From the NCBI GenBank assembly GCA_903879705.1, contig CAIRMO010000037.1:3698-67697 (forward strand): a stretch of 64,000 bases of DNA, written 5' to 3'. The notes below the pieces were generated by a model. That model made no database searches and had not been told where the DNA came from. It saw only the letters and a list, made by a program, of their open reading frames with translations. Below are positions 16,578-60,121 of this stretch, one piece after another (position 1 is the stretch's first letter; each line of letters opens with the position of its first letter). This DNA comes from an uncultured Candidatus Competibacteraceae bacterium (lineage in GTDB: Bacteria > Pseudomonadota > Gammaproteobacteria > Competibacterales > Competibacteraceae). The position numbers were made by a program, and so were the translations under genes.

Positions 16578-18361
16578 GGCGTGGTTCCCGGCGGCGGCGA
16601 TCCGGCGATCTTCATGCTCGGCATGTCGTCCGGGGTGATGTTCAGAATCCGCAGCGCCTCGCCCATCGTTTCGCCAAATACCGGCGCCGCCACCGCCCCG
16701 CCGTAGTACGCGCCGCCCTTGGGTTCATCGATGATGATCACCATCACCAGCCGGGGCTGGCTGGCGGGAACCATGCCCGCGAACAGCGAAAAGTAGCGAT
16801 TACTGGCATAACGACCGTTGACAATCTTGTGGACGGTGCCGGTCTTGCCTGCCACCCGGTAGCCGGGAACGCCCGCCTTAGCCCCGGTGCCTTGTTTGCT
16901 GACCGCCAGCTCCAGCATCGTGCGCACCTGCCGCACCGTCTGCGCCGAGAGAATGCGCTGCTCCGTGGCGGGGTCCAGCGGTTGCTGGCGTTTGATCAGG
17001 GTCAGTGGCCGCTTCACCCCATCCGCCGCCAGCACCCCGTAGGCTTGAGCCAGTTGCAGCATATTGATCGACAGTCCATAACCAAAAGAATGATTGGCGT
17101 GGCCGATCTCGCCGCCCCACTTGCTGAAATGGTGGAGAACGCCGGGTTGCTCACCGGACAGGCTCAGCCCGCTCAGCGCGCCGAAGCCCACGTCCTTGTA
17201 CAGCTTCCACAGCCGCTCCATCGGCATCGAAAACGCGATCTTGGTGGTGCCGATATTGCTGGATTTGCTGATGACGTGGGTGACATCGATGATGCCGTAG
17301 CTATGAGTATCGCGCACCCAGTAACGGCCCACCCGCAGCGGCCCCCGGGTATCCACGAGCGTTGTGGGTGTCCACTTGCCACTCTCCAGCGCCAGGCTGA
17401 TGGTGAAGGGCTTCATGGTCGAGCCGGGTTCGTAGACATCAGTCACTGCCCGGTTCCGGAGCAAATCACCCTGCAACTCGTTGCGGTTATTGGGATTGCC
17501 GGCGGGCTGATCGACCATCGCCAGAATCTCGCCGGTGCGGACATCGAGCATCACCGCCGATCCGGCATCGGCCTTGTTTTCCAGCACCGCCGCCTTGAGT
17601 GCGCGATAGGCCAGATACTGCAAGCGCCGGTCGATGCTCAGCGTCAGCCGCTGGCCCGGTTGTGGCAACCGGAGATTTTCGACCTCCTCGACGATGTGAC
17701 CCAGCCGATCCTTGATGACCCGTTTCTGACCAGGGACGCCGCGCAATTGGCTGTCAAACGCCTTTTCCAGCCCTTCCTGGCCGGCGTCGTCAATGTCGGT
17801 AAAACCCAGCAAGTGCGAAGTCACCTCAGCGTCCGGGTAATAGCGGCGGTATTCGCGTTGGGCATACACACCCGGAATTTTAAGTTGCAGGATTTGCTGG
17901 GCCGCGCTGGGAGACAGATGCCGACGCAGATAAATGAACTGGCGGGTCTCTTTACCCGCCAGCTTCTGGTCCAGTTCGGCCAAGGTCAGACCTAACAGCG
18001 GTGCGAGAATCGGCCAGCGGTCGTGCTGTTGCAACAATTCCGCCGGTTGCGCCCAAATCGAATCCACCGGCGAACTGACCGCCAGTGACTCACCGTTGCG
18101 GTCCACGATCATCCCCCGGTGCGCGGGCGTCTCGACCACCCGCAGATAGCGCTCATCACCCCGATCCTGCAGGAAGTCTTTATGCAACAGTTGCAAATAC
18201 GCCGCCCGGGCTACCATGCCGCTGGCCGCAAGGAACAGCAACGCCAGCGCCAGCCGGTGGCGCGTCATGGTGTGGAGCCACGCCTGCGTTTTACGCCACA
18301 GCGAATCCGGTGGGGCAGGTGAAACGGTTTTGTTTATGGGTTTTTTCATGGAGTAATTCAT
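16574..18361 (-). CDS. ftsI: Peptidoglycan D,D-transpeptidase FtsI (PBP3)
   Basis: ORF trimmed to ATG 18361 (MNYSMKKP...), which overlaps the ftsL stop as ATGA. Contains the SxxK (STMKP), SSN and KTGT motifs. Confidence 0.92.
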   Translation of the reverse strand: MNYSMKKPINKTVSPAPPDSLWRKTQAWLHTMTRHRLALALLFLAASGMVARAAYLQLLHKDFLQDRGDERYLRVVETPAHRGMIVDRNGESLAVSSPVDSIWAQPAELLQQHDRWPILAPLLGLTLAELDQKLAGKETRQFIYLRRHLSPSAAQQILQLKIPGVYAQREYRRYYPDAEVTSHLLGFTDIDDAGQEGLEKAFDSQLRGVPGQKRVIKDRLGHIVEEVENLRLPQPGQRLTLSIDRRLQYLAYRALKAAVLENKADAGSAVMLDVRTGEILAMVDQPAGNPNNRNELQGDLLRNRAVTDVYEPGSTMKPFTISLALESGKWTPTTLVDTRGPLRVGRYWVRDTHSYGIIDVTHVISKSSNIGTTKIAFSMPMERLWKLYKDVGFGALSGLSLSGEQPGVLHHFSKWGGEIGHANHSFGYGLSINMLQLAQAYGVLAADGVKRPLTLIKRQQPLDPATEQRILSAQTVRQVRTMLELAVSKQGTGAKAGVPGYRVAGKTGTVHKIVNGRYASNRYFSLFAGMVPASQPRLVMVIIIDEPKGGAYYGGAVAAPVFGETMGEALRILNITPDDMPSMKIAGSPPPGTTP

Positions 18362-43739: not shown

Positions 43740-44256
43740 GCAAAATACCCGCCGGCTGTTTCTGGCGCTGTGGCCGGAAGCTGCCGAGCGCCAGCAACTG
43801 GCTGAAATAGCGGCCAGCGTGGCGGGTCGGCAGCGAACCCCTGACGCCAACCTGCATTTGACCCTGGTGTTTCTGGGCGCAACCGATCCGGCCCGCCTGA
43901 CCGCTTATGAAGCCGCGTTGGCCGGTTTCACCCCGCCGCCGCTGGAACTGATCCTCGATCGCTATGGCTACTGGCCGCAACCGCGCATCCTCTGGCTCGG
44001 CTCCAGCCACACCTCGCTGGAGCTGGATGAATGGGTGGCCGAGTTGCATCAGCGGTTACGCGGCTGCGGCTTTGTCCCGGAACGGCGGGCATTTCAACCG
44101 CATCTCACCCTAGCCCGTAACCATCCCGGCCCGGCCCCGGTTCAACCGCTGGTTGCCCCGATGCATTGGCGAATCAATCAAGTGGCGCTGGTGGAATCAC
44201 TGCGACAGGACACCGGTTTAGCTTATCAAGTGGTGCGGCACTGGCCAGCGGGCTAG
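43720..44256 (+). CDS. thpR: RNA 2',3'-cyclic phosphodiesterase (2H phosphoesterase, LigT/ThpR)
   Basis: Two HxT/S motifs (HLTLVFLG and HLTLAR). Start is taken at ATG 43720 after AAGGAG, overlapping pncC by 20 nt. Confidence 0.83.
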   Translation: MCLPGNEQNTRRLFLALWPEAAERQQLAEIAASVAGRQRTPDANLHLTLVFLGATDPARLTAYEAALAGFTPPPLELILDRYGYWPQPRILWLGSSHTSLELDEWVAELHQRLRGCGFVPERRAFQPHLTLARNHPGPAPVQPLVAPMHWRINQVALVESLRQDTGLAYQVVRHWPAG

Positions 44257-44324
44257 GTTTAAACCGCCGGGCTATGGAATAATCGTTGGCAACATGATTC
44301 ACCACCCAACAGAGGATTCGTGGA

Positions 44325-46475
44325 ATGGATGACAACAAGAAAAAGGCGCTCGCCGGCGCATTGACCCAGATTGAACGCCAGTTCGGCAAGGGGGCCGTCA
44401 TGCGGTTGGGTGATACCAGCGTCTCCCGTGACGTGATGACGGTTTCGACCGGTTCGCTGGGGTTGGATATTGCGCTTGGCATCGGTGGTCTGCCGCGTGG
44501 CCGAGTCACGGAAATTTACGGCCCGGAATCCTCCGGCAAGACCACTCTGGCGCTGCAAGTCATCGCTGAAAGTCAGAAGCTGGGCGGTTGCGCGGCGTTC
44601 ATCGACGCCGAACACGCGCTCGACCCGATTTACGCCGGCAAGCTGGGCGTTAATGTCGACGATCTGCTGATTTCGCAGCCGGACACCGGCGAACAGGCGC
44701 TGGAGATCACCGATATGCTGGTGCGCTCCGGGGCGGTGGATATCGTTGTCATCGACTCGGTAGCGGCGCTGACCCCCAAGGCCGAAATTGAAGGCGATAT
44801 GGGCGATTCCCATGTCGGCCTACACGCCCGGCTAATGAGTCAGGCCCTCCGCAAGCTCACGGCTAACATCAAACGCTCGAATACCCTGGTAATTTTTATC
44901 AATCAAATCAGGATGAAAATTGGGGTCATGTTTGGCTGTTTTGATTATGGGGCACGTGTCGTTTTGGCTGACGGTTCGACTGAGAAAATCGGCAAGATTG
45001 TTAATCAGAAAAAACCAGTTGAAGTCCTGTCGATGGATCCGGTAACCGGACGAATCGAACCGCGTCCAGTCGTCAAATGGTTCCGCAATGGCGCGACCGA
45101 TGAATGGCTCTACTTCGAGGCTGCCGCGGGTGGTGGATCGGGCCGTCGCAAATTGACTTGCACCGCTAATCACCTGATTTTTACCCCCAGCGGTGAACGA
45201 CGGGCCGGTGAGTTGCAAATCGGTGATGAAGTGATGGTGGCTGCCAAGCATTACCAATTGAGTGAAGATCAGCGGCAATTGATTCTGGGTGGTTTGTTGG
45301 GGGATGGATCTCTGCGCTATGCCTCAGAACAGAATGTGTCTTTCCGGGTTGGGCATGGCGAGAAACAACTGGACTATTGCCAATGGAAATGGCAGATGCT
45401 GGCACCCTTTGCCAACAAGATAGGCAAAACGGGTAAAGGCTTTGGTTTCGATACCCTTCCAATGCGCCAGTTGGCTGAATTGCATGAACAGGCTTATGGC
45501 CCGGAGGGTCGGCAGGTCAGTGAAGCGATGCTGGCGGCGCTGGATGCGCGGGCGGTTGCCGTCTGGTACGGCGATGACGGTTCATTCTCTGGCAGTTATG
45601 AACACTGGGGGCATGGCAAGGCCGAAATCGGCTGTGTCAGTCTCTCTATGGCCGATAAGGAACGACTGGCCGCCCGTCTGGAAGAACTGGGCATGGGGCG
45701 TCCCACCGTGCGGGAACGCTCGCTCCTGTTCAGTGGCGAACGGACGCAGTTGCTTCACGCAAAAATCGCTCCTTATCTGCACCCGTCCCTCGATTACAAA
45801 CTGCATCCCGATTTTCGCGGGCAATTCGGCTGGGCGCTGAATGACGCGGCGAATGCGCCCGATAGTGGTCTGGCGGCCCGCACCGAACTACGGGCCGCGC
45901 CGATGCGGATTACCCGTAAGGAACTCCGTCTCGCCGCGCCACGCCACCGGATGCGTTTTGATCTGGCGGTCAAAGGTCATCACAGCTATCTGGTGGATCA
46001 TGTGGTGGTTCACAACTCCCCGGAAACTACCACCGGCGGCAATGCCCTCAAGTTTTACGCCTCAGTGCGACTCGATATCCGCCGCACCGGCGCCATCAAG
46101 AAAGGCGATGAAGTCATCGGTAATGAGACCCGCGTTAAGGTGGTCAAGAACAAGATGGCTCCGCCGTTCAAACAGGCTGAGTTTGAAATTCTCTACGGCG
46201 AAGGCACCTCCCGACTGGGCGAAATCATTGATCTGGGAGTCAAGGCCGCGCTAATTGATAAATCCGGGGCCTGGTACAGTTGCGGCGGGGTTCGCATTGG
46301 TCAGGGCAAGGAAAATGCCCGCTCCTATTTGCGAGAAAATGCTGAACTAGCGCGTGAGCTGGAAGCCAAGATTCGCGCCCACTTCCTGGCTAAGCCTGAC
46401 ACGCTGCCGGCTACGCCTGAACCTGGCGCGGAAGACGAACTCCCCGGCGACGATGAACTGGACGCGGATCTCTGA
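44325..46475 (+). CDS. recA: Recombinase RecA precursor containing an intein
   Basis: 716 aa. The exteins are canonical RecA ([12 protein letters not shown] Walker A, ...[13 protein letters not shown] / [23 protein letters not shown]...). Removing residues 205-564 gives a 356-aa RecA. Confidence 0.95.
44937..46016 (+). mobile_element. RecA intein (360 aa): Hint splicing domain with an embedded LAGLIDADG homing-endonuclease domain
   Basis: - Starts with Cys ([19 protein letters not shown]) and ends [12 protein letters not shown], followed by Ser+1.
- Two LAGLIDADG-like motifs: [12 protein letters not shown] and [11 protein letters not shown].
- Local GC is visibly lower than in the exteins. 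Confidence 0.9.
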
Positions 46476-47004: not shown

Positions 47005-47565
47005 ATGAGCGTTTTCTACACGGTCTATTTTGTTAAAACATCGCAACCTGAAATTGTTGCTAAGGCATTTAACCGCATAGAGCGGGTGGAGGATTCTGAA
47101 TGGTTAGTCTGTAATTTTGACGATAGCGATGAGGATGGATTATTTGAGCCAGATAGTGATTTTACCAGCAAAATTTCTCAGCAATTTGGTGAAGCTATTT
47201 TCATTTGTGTCAATGAGCGTGATGATCAGTTTGAGTACGAACATTCCAGGGATGGCGTTTTGCTGCGTAAACTCACCTGGGTTTCTGACGGCTGTCGATC
47301 AACCTGGATGAACGTGCAGGGAGAACAGGAGGCATGGGAAGATGATGTGCTATTTTCGGAAGAGAACTTTGCTAGGGCATTAGAGATCATCAAATATGAC
47401 GATCATCTTAACTTGCTCAGTAATCAGCAATTGATGGAAAAGCAGCAACAACTCCGCGCTATTTGGGATGCCCGGCAATATGTCGTTAATGGGCAGTGGC
47501 CTTTAGGTGATGGAACGATAGGTATGGCGATTCCAAAGTATTTTGGAATCAAAATGCCGGTTTAA
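47005..47565 (+). CDS. Hypothetical acidic cytoplasmic protein (islet gene 1)
   Basis: 186-aa ORF with GAGGAA upstream of the ATG. No recognised motif. Acidic composition is reminiscent of immunity-type proteins, which is speculative. Confidence 0.55.
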   Translation: MSVFYTVYFVKTSQPEIVAKAFNRIERVEDSEWLVCNFDDSDEDGLFEPDSDFTSKISQQFGEAIFICVNERDDQFEYEHSRDGVLLRKLTWVSDGCRSTWMNVQGEQEAWEDDVLFSEENFARALEIIKYDDHLNLLSNQQLMEKQQQLRAIWDARQYVVNGQWPLGDGTIGMAIPKYFGIKMPV

Positions 47566-47616
47566 CATAAGCGTATTAGCGCAATTATGATTACACGAAT
47601 TGGATAGGAGCGATAT

Positions 47617-48293
47617 ATGTGTGAGAATTTAATCTTCATAAAGAAAGACGATAAGGTTATAAAATCTGATTTTATGATTGCGCAATATCCAGTAACCATA
47701 AAAGAGTTTCAAGAGATGTTTGAAAAACAGGCAGGCGATCCAGAAAATGCGAAATATATTAAGGAATCAACATGGATGGAGGCTATTAAATACTATAATT
47801 TATTAAACATAAAAAAAAAGAATTACCGTTGTCTTATGATGAAAATACTGGAGAGTTAATTGATGAAAATGGAGAACGCATAGAAGAGGTATTAGAAATA
47901 GCAGGCTTTAGATTTCCAAGTTCCAGAGTAAAAGGATTTAGACTTCCAACCTCAGAGGAATGGGAATATGCGGCAAAAGGGCGGAGTTTAGAAAGACAAA
48001 CCGGTTCTTATCTAAAAATTCTTCAGGAAATTTATACAGATTGGAATATAGATACGCGATGCTCAGAAATTGAAAAAATGAAAAGCAATACTATAGGATT
48101 ATTTGGAATTTTAGAAAATCGCGAATGGTATAGTGATAATAAAAATTTAGAAGGATTAAAAAATAAAATGTGTCTTTGGGAGGAATATATTTGCAATTAT
48201 AACAACGATCTCTCCTATCAAGTAATCAGGAAAATAAGTAATGACACGGAACTAACTGGTTTTAGGGTTGCAGTTGGACAAAAAACAAGGTAA
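47617..48293 (+). pseudogene. FGE-sulfatase (SUMF1/EgtB/PvdO-like) domain gene interrupted by a -1 frame change at an A9 run
   Basis: ORF 47617..47859 (FMIAQYPVTIKEFQEMF...STWMEAIKYYNLL) and ORF 47829..48293 (GFRLPTSEEWEYAAKG) are the N- and C-halves of one FGE-type domain. They join in the -1 frame at A_AAA_AAG (47814..47820). This could be a frameshift mutation, programmed slippage, or a homopolymer sequencing error. Confidence 0.7.
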
Positions 48294-48340
48294 CAATACC
48301 ATGATTAGAGAGTAATCCACCAGAAAGAGGATGTATTGTG

Positions 48341-49801
48341 ATGAACCAAGAACAACTTGAAAAAGCTAAAAAACTTTTCTTTATCCTTCTTAGCGTTGAT
48401 ATTGTGGTTAACGCTATTGCTGGATTTAATTCCTTCTCAACAGTAGAAATACTAAGAAATGTTCAGTCTGGTACCAGAAGCATAGATCAAGCTTTAATCA
48501 ATAGCGTGGATTTTTGGGATAAATTTTCCATGCTAACCATTTTGACCTTGATCGGCGTTGGTCTTGGTCTAGTCAAATGGTTAAATTCATGTTACCGCTT
48601 TGCCAAAGAATTTATTGGAGCAACCGGGTTCAAAAATGAGAAGTGGACGGTTGTTGGGTGGATTATTCCTGTATTTAATCTTTTTAAGCCGTACCAAATT
48701 ATCAATGAAATCTATAAGGCTGGATCACAAAACTACTCAAGAGCCGATGATTGGAAGAAAGAGAACGGCTCTTGGTTGTTGCTAACATGGTGGATTTTTT
48801 GGGCTGTAACTCATTTCTTTATGTGGATTTTTGGTAAAGAAATGCTCAAAAAATCACTTCGTGGCGATCTTACATTACTGCAACTAATTGGCCTATATGA
48901 AATTCAAGCATGGCTATTTGCTTTTTCAATTCTTGTGGCTGCTTTATGGTTCATAGTCGCTGGAAGTTTAACGCAACGCTTTCTGAATCGTTCAACTAAG
49001 CCTAGCAGGAATACCGTAAGTGTAGATGACGATCATTCATACAAAACAGCTTATGAAGAAATGAGTTCTGGACAATTTCAAACGGCTACTTGGGCAAAGG
49101 CATTTGCAAACGCAGAAGGCAATCAAGATAAAGCCAAAGCGCTGTATATCAAGTATCGTGTAGAACAGCTTTCTGCACTGCCCGTTCAGCAACCACAAAC
49201 TGTTTCTGCAGCAGACAGCACAGAGTTGCCAGATCAACATGAAGTAGCCGGTTCAGTTTACAGTGAAAATAAGAGCGCTATTGCTGTTATTGTCCTTGTT
49301 GGCTTAGCAGGCTTTATCTTATTGATTTCTCAGATTAAAAAACCATCGACGAATTTACCCGAAAAATCTTCTGAAGTTTCGACCACCACCACTAATCATC
49401 AGCTATCTGCTTCAAATTCAGATCAAGCTCAAAAAGAAAGATTAAGTAGTAAAGCATCTATAGATTCTCAACAAGAAAGATCAAATAGTAAAGTATCTAT
49501 AGACTTTGATTGTATTGAAACTTCTCTTTATAATAAAAGTGGTTATGCAATCAGCCTTAGTGCTAAAATCAAAAATAATAGCGATAATTATGTTGAATCT
49601 ATTTTGGCTAACTGTTCAGGTTACGATAAAAATAAGAATAAAACTTTTTATGAAGAACAAGTGCTGTTTACAAGTAAAGATTTAATAGCATTAGCCCCAA
49701 ATAATGAGGCTTATTTTTGGAATGCACCTCAGTATCCTAAATATCCATCTTCTACATTCAGCATAGATTGTCAAGTTACAAAAATAAAATTTTCTCGATA
49801 A
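48341..49801 (+). CDS. Multi-TM protein with a DUF4328-like N-terminal membrane domain and a Ser/Thr/Gln-rich linker (islet gene 3)
   Basis: - WTVVGWIIPVFNLFKPYQIINEIYKAG resembles the DUF4328 signature.
- A central segment reads TATWAKAFANAEGNQDKAKALYIKYRVEQL.
- One more TM helix and a low-complexity tail follow.
- Assignments are from memory and unverified. Confidence 0.6.
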   Translation: MNQEQLEKAKKLFFILLSVDIVVNAIAGFNSFSTVEILRNVQSGTRSIDQALINSVDFWDKFSMLTILTLIGVGLGLVKWLNSCYRFAKEFIGATGFKNEKWTVVGWIIPVFNLFKPYQIINEIYKAGSQNYSRADDWKKENGSWLLLTWWIFWAVTHFFMWIFGKEMLKKSLRGDLTLLQLIGLYEIQAWLFAFSILVAALWFIVAGSLTQRFLNRSTKPSRNTVSVDDDHSYKTAYEEMSSGQFQTATWAKAFANAEGNQDKAKALYIKYRVEQLSALPVQQPQTVSAADSTELPDQHEVAGSVYSENKSAIAVIVLVGLAGFILLISQIKKPSTNLPEKSSEVSTTTTNHQLSASNSDQAQKERLSSKASIDSQQERSNSKVSIDFDCIETSLYNKSGYAISLSAKIKNNSDNYVESILANCSGYDKNKNKTFYEEQVLFTSKDLIALAPNNEAYFWNAPQYPKYPSSTFSIDCQVTKIKFSR

Positions 49802-49829
49802 CTCCTTTGAATTATAGAGGGGTTCCACG

Positions 49830-59752: not shown

Positions 59753-60121
59753 TCAATATTTTTGTCCAGTAATTACTGCAGTCCAGTAATTGCCCGGCAC
59801 ATACCAATCAGCCGTCCCATGATGAATGCGTGTCCCGTCTCTTGACAAACGACCGTAGTAAAGTTGCCGAAGTCCACGCCGGTATAATACTACTTGCCCA
59901 TCATCTATTGAGCGAAACTCAATAATATCATGTGCAATCCCTCCTGTAGCACTGTAAACCCATACAGCATCAAAGATGGGAGATCGCGGTCTTCGTGTCC
60001 AGGTACCCTCGTAAACACTGCCATCCGGCATATACTCGCGAACCCTCCAGACTCGACCTAAATCAAGCCCATTAACTTCGTAAGCAGAAAGAGGGCTAAC
60101 AAAAGTCAGCAACAGGCACAC
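59753..60121 (-). CDS. Hypothetical small exported protein interposed between the two arnA halves
   Basis: The ORF is open from 60166. The first canonical start is GTG at 60121, but a better signal peptide (AILNKHRSLTAVVCLLLTFVSPLSA) and GGAGGAG point to a start near ATC 60154. No recognised domain. Confidence 0.45.
   Translation of the reverse strand: MCLLLTFVSPLSAYEVNGLDLGRVWRVREYMPDGSVYEGTWTRRPRSPIFDAVWVYSATGGIAHDIIEFRSIDDGQVVLYRRGLRQLYYGRLSRDGTRIHHGTADWYVPGNYWTAVITGQKY

Follow-up and report, generated by a model that had tools for sequence, protein, structure and literature searches.

A LAGLIDADG-containing intein at the M. leprae-type site of a Competibacteraceae RecA, with signs of recent transfer between genera

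When the only recA gene of a bacterium is split by a long in-frame insert, three questions arise at once: what the insert is, how the cell would still obtain RecA, and where the insert came from. Such a gene lies in the window, the whole stretch of 64,000 nucleotides that was analysed here, and public records label it plainly as "recombinase RecA". The window comes from a wastewater bacterium, which its named relatives assign to the Competibacteraceae, near Ca. Contendobacter. A first-pass annotation made from the sequence had read the gene as recA interrupted by a 360-aa intein at 44937-46016, and these coordinates proved exact to the base. The features of the locus are the following.

44325-46475, + strand: recA open reading frame, 716 aa, the single long open reading frame there
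44325..44936, + strand: recA N-extein, aa 1-204, ending ...IGVMFG (Pfam RecA 7-205; TIGR02012 4-205)
44937..46016, + strand: intein, read as class 1 and full length (Hint plus LAGLIDADG endonuclease), 360 aa
44937..44975, + strand: splicing block A, with Cys1 as the predicted first nucleophile (C1, L10, D12 and G13 invariant in 22 homologues)
45150..45182, + strand: splicing block B with TxxH (T76-A-N-H79; T76 and H79 invariant)
45273..45830, + strand: LAGLIDADG homing-endonuclease domain, intein aa 113-298 (Pfam LAGLIDADG_2; model match to I-SceI)
45279..45314, + strand: LAGLIDADG motif 1, LILGGLLGD123GSL, intein aa 115-126, with presumed catalytic Asp123
45555..45587, + strand: LAGLIDADG motif 2, VAVWYGDD214GSF, intein aa 207-217, with presumed catalytic Asp214
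45831..45884, + strand: variable, low-confidence linker from the endonuclease to the C-terminal Hint lobe, aa 299-316
45954..46016, + strand: splicing blocks F and G, with penultimate His359 and terminal Asn360 (H349, V358, H359 and N360 invariant)
46017..46475, + strand: recA C-extein, aa 565-716 plus stop, starting SPETTTGG (+1 Ser)

The insert runs in frame from CFDYGARV to VVVHN and occupies aa 205-564 of the open reading frame, exactly 1080 nt or 360 aa, with GVMFG before it and SPETTTGG after it. That it starts with Cys and ends with VVVHN followed by Ser, the extein being otherwise continuous, had been noticed from the beginning, and both the sequence and the alignment with E. coli RecA agree with it: once the insert is removed, a RecA of 356 aa remains that aligns without gaps across the junction with E. 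coli RecA (3CMU, 2REB and others). The N-extein is 98% identical in amino acids to those of intein-free congeners, and the C-extein gives Pfam matches to RecA and RecA_C (632-687). Calculation yields 78.0 kDa for the precursor, 38.0 kDa for spliced RecA and 40.0 kDa for the intein, as the annotation had expected for the first two (78 and 38 kDa). The gene with its intein contains zero stops and zero frameshifts, and it is the single recA copy of the genome. A search for a LexA box (CTGT-N8-ACAG with at most one mismatch) upstream of recA, at 44100-44325, found none.

As for the capacity to splice, the annotation had proposed a check of blocks A, B, F and G, and an alignment of 22 homologues shows the key residues of all of them to be present and invariant, with H349 belonging to block F and the H359-N360 pair to block G; moreover, the +1 residue is Ser in every homologous copy that could be read through the junction. 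Among the profile models, NCBIfam intein_Nterm (TIGR01445) matches with 39.5 bits over a cut-off of 24.5, and Pfam Intein_splicing and Hint also match, both under their gathering scores. The best sequence matches in the PDB are to the Hint domain of PI-MtuI, the M. tuberculosis RecA intein (E 1e-9). An AlphaFold model of the intein, built on the homologue alignment, reached a pLDDT of 91.6 and a pTM of 0.84, and when its Hint part was compared with the PDB by Foldseek it superposed on the Mtu RecA mini-intein with an rmsd of 1.3-1.8 Å and 30-34% identity over ~102-108 residues, which makes the PI-MtuI Hint domain the closest solved structure. The Hint fold of the model also matches those of the Ssp DnaB and Npu DnaE inteins, the TM-scores on the target being 0.5-0.64 for the three, Mtu RecA included. 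The locus therefore combines Cys1, a block B with TxxH, His-Asn followed by Ser+1, an insert removable in frame and a predicted Hint fold, which are the marks of a class-1 intein. Compared with the copy of Ca. Contendobacter odensis, the Hint lobes show dN/dS values of 0.03 (N-terminal) and 0 (C-terminal).

The two LAGLIDADG-like motifs that had been seen in the insert were found at intein aa 115-126 and 207-217, inside a domain that Pfam LAGLIDADG_2 recognises with E 3.5e-16 (60-62 bits, the cut-off being 25). Both D123 and D214 are kept, and each is conserved in 90% or more of the homologues in the alignment. In the Foldseek comparison, the endonuclease part of the model resembles I-SceI and I-WcaI (TM 0.65-0.71 on target), and the pseudo-dimeric alpha-beta-beta-alpha-beta-beta-alpha fold is predicted in the model by comparison with I-SceI, I-WcaI and I-Tsp061I (TM 0.56-0.71 on target). 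Between the window and the C. odensis copy this domain (aa 113-298) has accumulated 27.5 synonymous and 7.5 non-synonymous changes, with a dN/dS of 0.07. The linker that follows it behaves otherwise: residues 303-309 have a pLDDT below 50 and are the sole disordered part of the model, and the linker holds 6 of the 16.5 non-synonymous changes and 7 of the 16 residue differences from C. odensis. To judge from these substitutions, the endonuclease domain is constrained by purifying selection, with free evolution in the disordered linker only. Altogether, domain models, conserved blocks and the AlphaFold fold support the initial proposal of an intein with a LAGLIDADG endonuclease, and by residues and predicted fold we regard the insert as an intact, full-length class-1 intein carrying a monomeric, two-motif enzyme of this family.

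The junction corresponds to G204/N205 of E. coli RecA and to Gly204/Ser205 in the mature protein. Residues 195-209 of E. coli RecA form the L2 loop, so the junction falls inside this DNA-binding loop. The claim that RecA function depends here on protein splicing finds support in this position, since the insert splits the L2 loop, and in the single recA copy of the genome. Moreover, the exteins have a dN/dS of ~0.03-0.04 against intein-free congeners, which indicates a RecA in use and, consequently, a requirement for splicing. The NCBIfam model NF007072, which describes the M. tuberculosis-type intein-containing RecA over 790 positions with the intein after ~255, aligns the window N-extein to its positions 6-206 and the start of the window intein to 256-350, for a total score of 465.8 bits, far under its cut-off of 1024. 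The window intein thus precedes the M. tuberculosis one by ~50 residues, and RecA site a (the M. tuberculosis type, ~251/252) is ruled out by both the positions and the score. Five insertion points have been defined in RadA/RecA (Topilina et al. 2015, PMC4513877, Table 1), among them site a, with the M. tuberculosis RecA intein at 252-691, and site b, with that of M. leprae (P35901) at 206-570 and most of the others at 205-573. With its intein at 205-564, the window occupies RecA site b, of the M. leprae and not the M. tuberculosis type, as the annotation had proposed. Site b is also used in other Actinobacteria, in one proteobacterium (Thiovulum sp. ES, 210-562) and in one cyanobacterium (PMC4513877), and 56 bacterial RecA inteins have been counted across Actinobacteria, Cyanobacteria and Proteobacteria (Novikova et al. 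2016, PMC4760082). RecA inteins, then, extend beyond mycobacteria, and proteobacterial and cyanobacterial cases at site b were already published.

Our searches widen this picture. Inteins at the same codon occur in other Competibacteraceae (85-96% amino acid identity), in Chromatiaceae such as Allochromatium, Chromatium and Thiohalocapsa (76-80%), in many soil Actinomycetota (Solirubrobacterales, Thermoleophilaceae, Gaiellaceae and Nocardioidaceae; 59-68%) and in an Anaerolineae genome (~40%), whose copy has Gly at the position of D123 and Asn at that of D214, both presumed catalytic Asp being lost. A large protein collection returned more than 1,900 matches; among those listed, the named ones are RecA recombinases, two of them described as "intein-containing recombinase RecA". 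Within the Competibacteraceae, 11 of the 88 species genomes carry the intein, distributed over 5 of 29 genera and patchily within each genus. Every intein-bearing allele has a Ser codon of the TCN type at +1, as do their closest intein-free relatives, while more distant members of the family have either Asn, as in E. coli, or an AGY-Ser at this position. Because splicing needs a nucleophile at +1, the site would be productive in only part of the family. One genome of the family (G006) has a mini-intein of 168 aa, from which the endonuclease domain has been cleanly deleted with all splicing blocks kept; the missing part is exactly the one that spans aa 113-298. When the intein was compared by tblastn with 50,697 phage records in search of a possible phage vector, the only matches were distant inteins in other genes, with at most 36% identity.

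Where did the window copy come from? An alignment to close relatives had been suggested to look for intein-free alleles, and three sister species turned out to be precisely empty. Two of them (G001 and G003) belong to the same genus and have an intein-free recA encoding a 96% identical protein. The third, a metagenomic sister (L067, P0121), shows an exact empty site, with the BLAST alignment breaking at 44935 | 46017, and offers the closest intein-free allele found, 98% identical in amino acids. Its flanks are 91-93% identical in nucleotides, and this value of ~92% indicates a sister species, for which reason we reject a presence/absence polymorphism within one species. The nearest intein, by contrast, is that of C. 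odensis, which the genome collection assigns to another genus. Between the window and C. odensis the intein is 93.1% identical in nucleotides, against 83.9% and 83.1% for the two exteins, and the synonymous divergence (Nei-Gojobori) is 0.26 for the intein and 0.88 for the exteins, with 58 of 258 synonymous sites differing in the former and 128 of 246 in the latter (Fisher p = 5e-12). The extein dS between the window and its intein-free congeners is 0.44-0.52, so the two inteins would have parted later than the species within the genus did. Different mutational or selective regimes could in principle lower the dS of an intein. All other pairs of Competibacteraceae speak against this explanation, as their intein dS equals or exceeds that of the exteins, and the low value is thus specific to the pair formed by the window and C. 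odensis.

Phylogenies tell a concordant story. The intein tree joins the window with C. odensis (100/100 support), whereas the DNA tree of the exteins joins it with the intein-free G001 and G003 (100/100), and an AU test on the exteins rejects the grouping of the window with C. odensis (p = 0.0125). The presence of the intein mapped on the extein tree needs at least six gains or losses. At the flanking sites where the congeners agree and C. odensis differs, the window exteins are congener-like up to position -64 and again from +25, and the only odensis-like site is +3, at the third position of the codon for Ser+1. A long co-conversion tract is therefore rejected, since congener-like sequence comes as close to the junction as 64 nt on the upstream side and 25 nt on the downstream side, and these informative sites suggest that the intein arrived alone, with a very short tract, as endonuclease-driven homing predicts and a gene replacement would not. 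The horizontal acquisition advanced in the annotation is in this way upheld by the empty sites in sister species and by the discordant divergence of intein and exteins, and these comparisons point clearly to a recent transfer of the intein across genera, probably into the window lineage.

Base composition contributes less to the argument. The insert had been described as visibly lower in GC than the exteins, a statement that stands only in part: its overall GC is barely lower (56.3% versus 58.5% and 57.5%), whereas the difference in GC3 is clearer (57.8% versus 72.1% and 62.7%) and a dip to 49-55% is confined to the first ~550 nt. A strongly foreign composition is rejected, with the GC at 56.3% against ~58% and the GC3 of the insert at the 12th percentile of the long open reading frames of the genome, which makes it no outlier, and the compositional signal for a foreign origin is accordingly weak.

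Very probably, then, the window holds an intact site-b intein that splices and homes, and that was gained after the split from its intein-free sisters. Translation would give a 78-kDa precursor unable to act as RecA, and the residues present at the junctions suggest the usual order of events for its maturation. An N-S acyl shift at Cys1 would be followed by the attack of Ser+1 on the resulting thioester; cyclisation of Asn360, helped by His359 and residues of blocks B and F, would then free the 40-kDa intein, and a final O-N shift would leave the 38-kDa RecA ligated. The released intein, as a monomeric enzyme with two LAGLIDADG motifs, would be expected to cut intein-less recA at GGC|TCN, and repair of the cut gene would copy the intein in. 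Both splicing and DNA cleavage by the window intein are inferred from its sequence and predicted structure. As regards its history, comparison among relatives suggests that the lineage received the intein from a source allele closest to that of C. odensis, with almost zero flanking extein DNA transferred.

Other explanations have to be set against this one, the most serious being that the intein splices but its endonuclease is inactive, so that we would be looking at a domesticated or decaying passenger whose distribution reflects old homing, vertical descent and loss. Sequence cannot reveal activity, inactive endonucleases are common among inteins, the mini-intein of G006 shows that the domain is already gone in one genome of the same family, and the Anaerolineae copy is devoid of both presumed catalytic Asp. 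In the window, both D123 and D214 are retained, the domain has kept a dN/dS of 0.07 since its split from the C. odensis copy, and the transfer itself appears recent, given that the two inteins separated after the host genera did (dS 0.26 versus 0.88). We consider an inactive endonuclease unlikely on balance, while giving it more weight than any of the alternatives below. A strictly vertical history, in which the intein was inherited from a Contendobacter-like ancestor and precisely lost in the sisters, would fit the fact that the intein tree follows taxonomy at high rank, with Competibacteraceae, Chromatiaceae and Actinomycetota forming one group each, and an intein can be lost precisely when the gene recombines with a cDNA-like copy or with an allele that lacks it. 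Such a history would have to accommodate an intein dS far below that of the exteins of the same pair, and below that of the congeners too, as well as the conflicting trees with their AU result and the six or more changes on the extein tree, and we find it very improbable.

The genome is a draft of 148 contigs, which leads to the suspicion that the insert was mis-joined during assembly, or that a dead recA needs no splicing at all. The annotation itself had named an assembly chimera as what would refute it, and the evidence contradicts this: two independent conspecific assemblies (L068, GCA_049318565.1, and L069, from Logan, SRR30676216) share the insert, aligning with 96.5-97.3% identity straight through the intein, without interruption between 40001/41962 and 47049. 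In these two and in more than 20 other genomes recA is built alike, with the in-frame insert at the same codon. For practical purposes a chimera is excluded; with a single-copy gene free of stops and frameshifts and an extein dN/dS of ~0.03, a pseudogene fares no better, and the two readings together deserve next to no credence.

A further possibility concerns regulation. Conditional splicing has been shown for mycobacterial DnaB inteins, and the Competibacteraceae hosts live in wastewater plants, where anaerobic phases alternate with aerobic ones. By analogy, splicing of the window intein might be blocked by oxidation, involving Cys1 and the nearly invariant Cys75 of block B, or by metal binding, a speculation that we regard as quite doubtful. 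If it held, RecA activity would be gated post-translationally and the intein would be more than a parasite.

Among known systems, the closest, and the one whose way of working the window copy would share, is the M. leprae RecA intein (PI-MleI), inserted in the same host protein and at the same point, after the Gly of GVMFG and before SPET, a grouping that is defined by the site coordinates alone (206-570 in M. leprae, 205-564 in the window). Its 360 residues set the window copy within the range of 353-367 aa of the site-b inteins in Table 1 of PMC4513877, with which it has in common Cys1, a final His-Asn followed by Ser+1 and a LAGLIDADG endonuclease; the host differs, as a Competibacteraceae gammaproteobacterium where the sole proteobacterial site-b case of that table is Thiovulum. 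The M. leprae precursor is reported to splice in mycobacteria and not in E. coli (PMC5874633), and for this reason a failure of the window intein to splice in E. coli, an outcome that had been offered as a sign of degeneracy, would not demonstrate it. PI-MtuI also resides in RecA and shares the class-1 chemistry and the LAGLIDADG endonuclease, but it is placed at 252-691, with 440 aa and a Cys at +1 instead of 360 aa and Ser. More remote are PI-SceI (the yeast VMA1 intein) and PI-PfuI, where the Hint domain is likewise split by a two-motif LAGLIDADG endonuclease. They were the best Foldseek matches of the whole model (E 4e-12 and 1.5e-11), with only 13-15% identity and unrelated hosts; both are larger than the window intein (454 residues for PI-PfuI and ~430 for the PI-SceI chains), and their domain placement fails a whole superposition on the window model, with an rmsd of 17-21 Å.

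Since site-b RecA inteins are catalogued in Actinobacteria, one proteobacterium and one cyanobacterium, the kind of element was already known, and neither the window copy nor the G006 mini-intein changes the general knowledge on inteins. The added value is modest, consisting of a quantified recent transfer between genera and an endonuclease loss in one environmental family. Within a single bacterial family, the homing cycle can be followed cleanly in nature, with recent invasion, a constrained endonuclease, empty sites and a mini-intein. For annotation, the gene should be described as encoding a 78-kDa precursor whose mature RecA needs protein splicing. As minor observations, the endonuclease may be a rare cutter with a new specificity, directed at a highly conserved stretch of recA, and the mini-intein of G006 represents a naturally minimised splicing domain.

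The residue encoded by the codon that follows GVMFG in recA, where the intein is inserted, varies within the family (loci L008-L037 of our comparison), being Asn (AAY) in most distant genera and Ser encoded by AGY in a few, with Ser encoded by TCN found in the clade that contains every intein-bearing allele. Productive invasion by the intein may be restricted to Ser lineages.

At this same insertion site, the recA of another Competibacteraceae genome (G006; locus L004, 871-2727, minus strand) carries a natural mini-intein of 168 aa. A few residues, TCSDEL, stand where residues ~113-312 of the window intein, with the entire LAGLIDADG domain, would be, and blocks A, B, F and G as well as Ser+1 are all intact. 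Within the homing cycle, this mini-intein belongs to a late stage, and it offers a predicted minimal splicing domain that is ready-made.

Other copies of the recA intein occur in distant hosts. In the Anaerolineae copy (L059, 2501-3535), the presumed catalytic Asp pair is replaced by Gly and Asn, and because both residues are changed the endonuclease is probably inactive. In a Solirubrobacterales locus (L055), the intein has been open for just a few codons when its reading frame is broken, which suggests either a frameshift or a degenerate copy.

Two more inteins were found in the genome to which the window belongs. One of them, with junctions ...ANILK/CLRYNALV...GGVVHN/CRPPDNR, interrupts a family-4 uracil-DNA glycosylase (Pfam UDG; contig C100, locus L006, 795-2942, minus strand). 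Like the recA intein, to which it is 31% identical, it contains a LAGLIDADG_2 domain. The other occurs in DnaE, the DNA polymerase III alpha subunit (contig C38, around 16873-17103, minus strand), within an open frame of 1634 aa and with junctions GYGFNK/CVHGNTV...GIIVHN/SHSAAYA.

Regarding the neighbourhood of recA, a gene for a thpR-like 2'-5' RNA ligase (43803-44150) is flanked by pncC and recA in the window, and most of it is missing from the intein-free metagenomic sister (L067), where a 62-aa ORF alone is left. A LexA box of the gammaproteobacterial type (CTGT-N8-ACAG, with at most one mismatch) was not found upstream of recA (44100-44325), and the single perfect match in the whole window lies at 59952-59967. 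An AT-rich islet whose content differs among strains extends from 47050 to 49829, with recX on one side and alaS on the other. Two conspecific assemblies (L068 from NCBI and L069 from Logan) hold another insert between these genes, encoding an N6/N4 DNA methyltransferase and a HATPase_c_4 protein, within flanks 96-97% identical to those of the window. Since conspecifics differ in what is inserted there, the junction of recX and alaS is a hot spot for integration.
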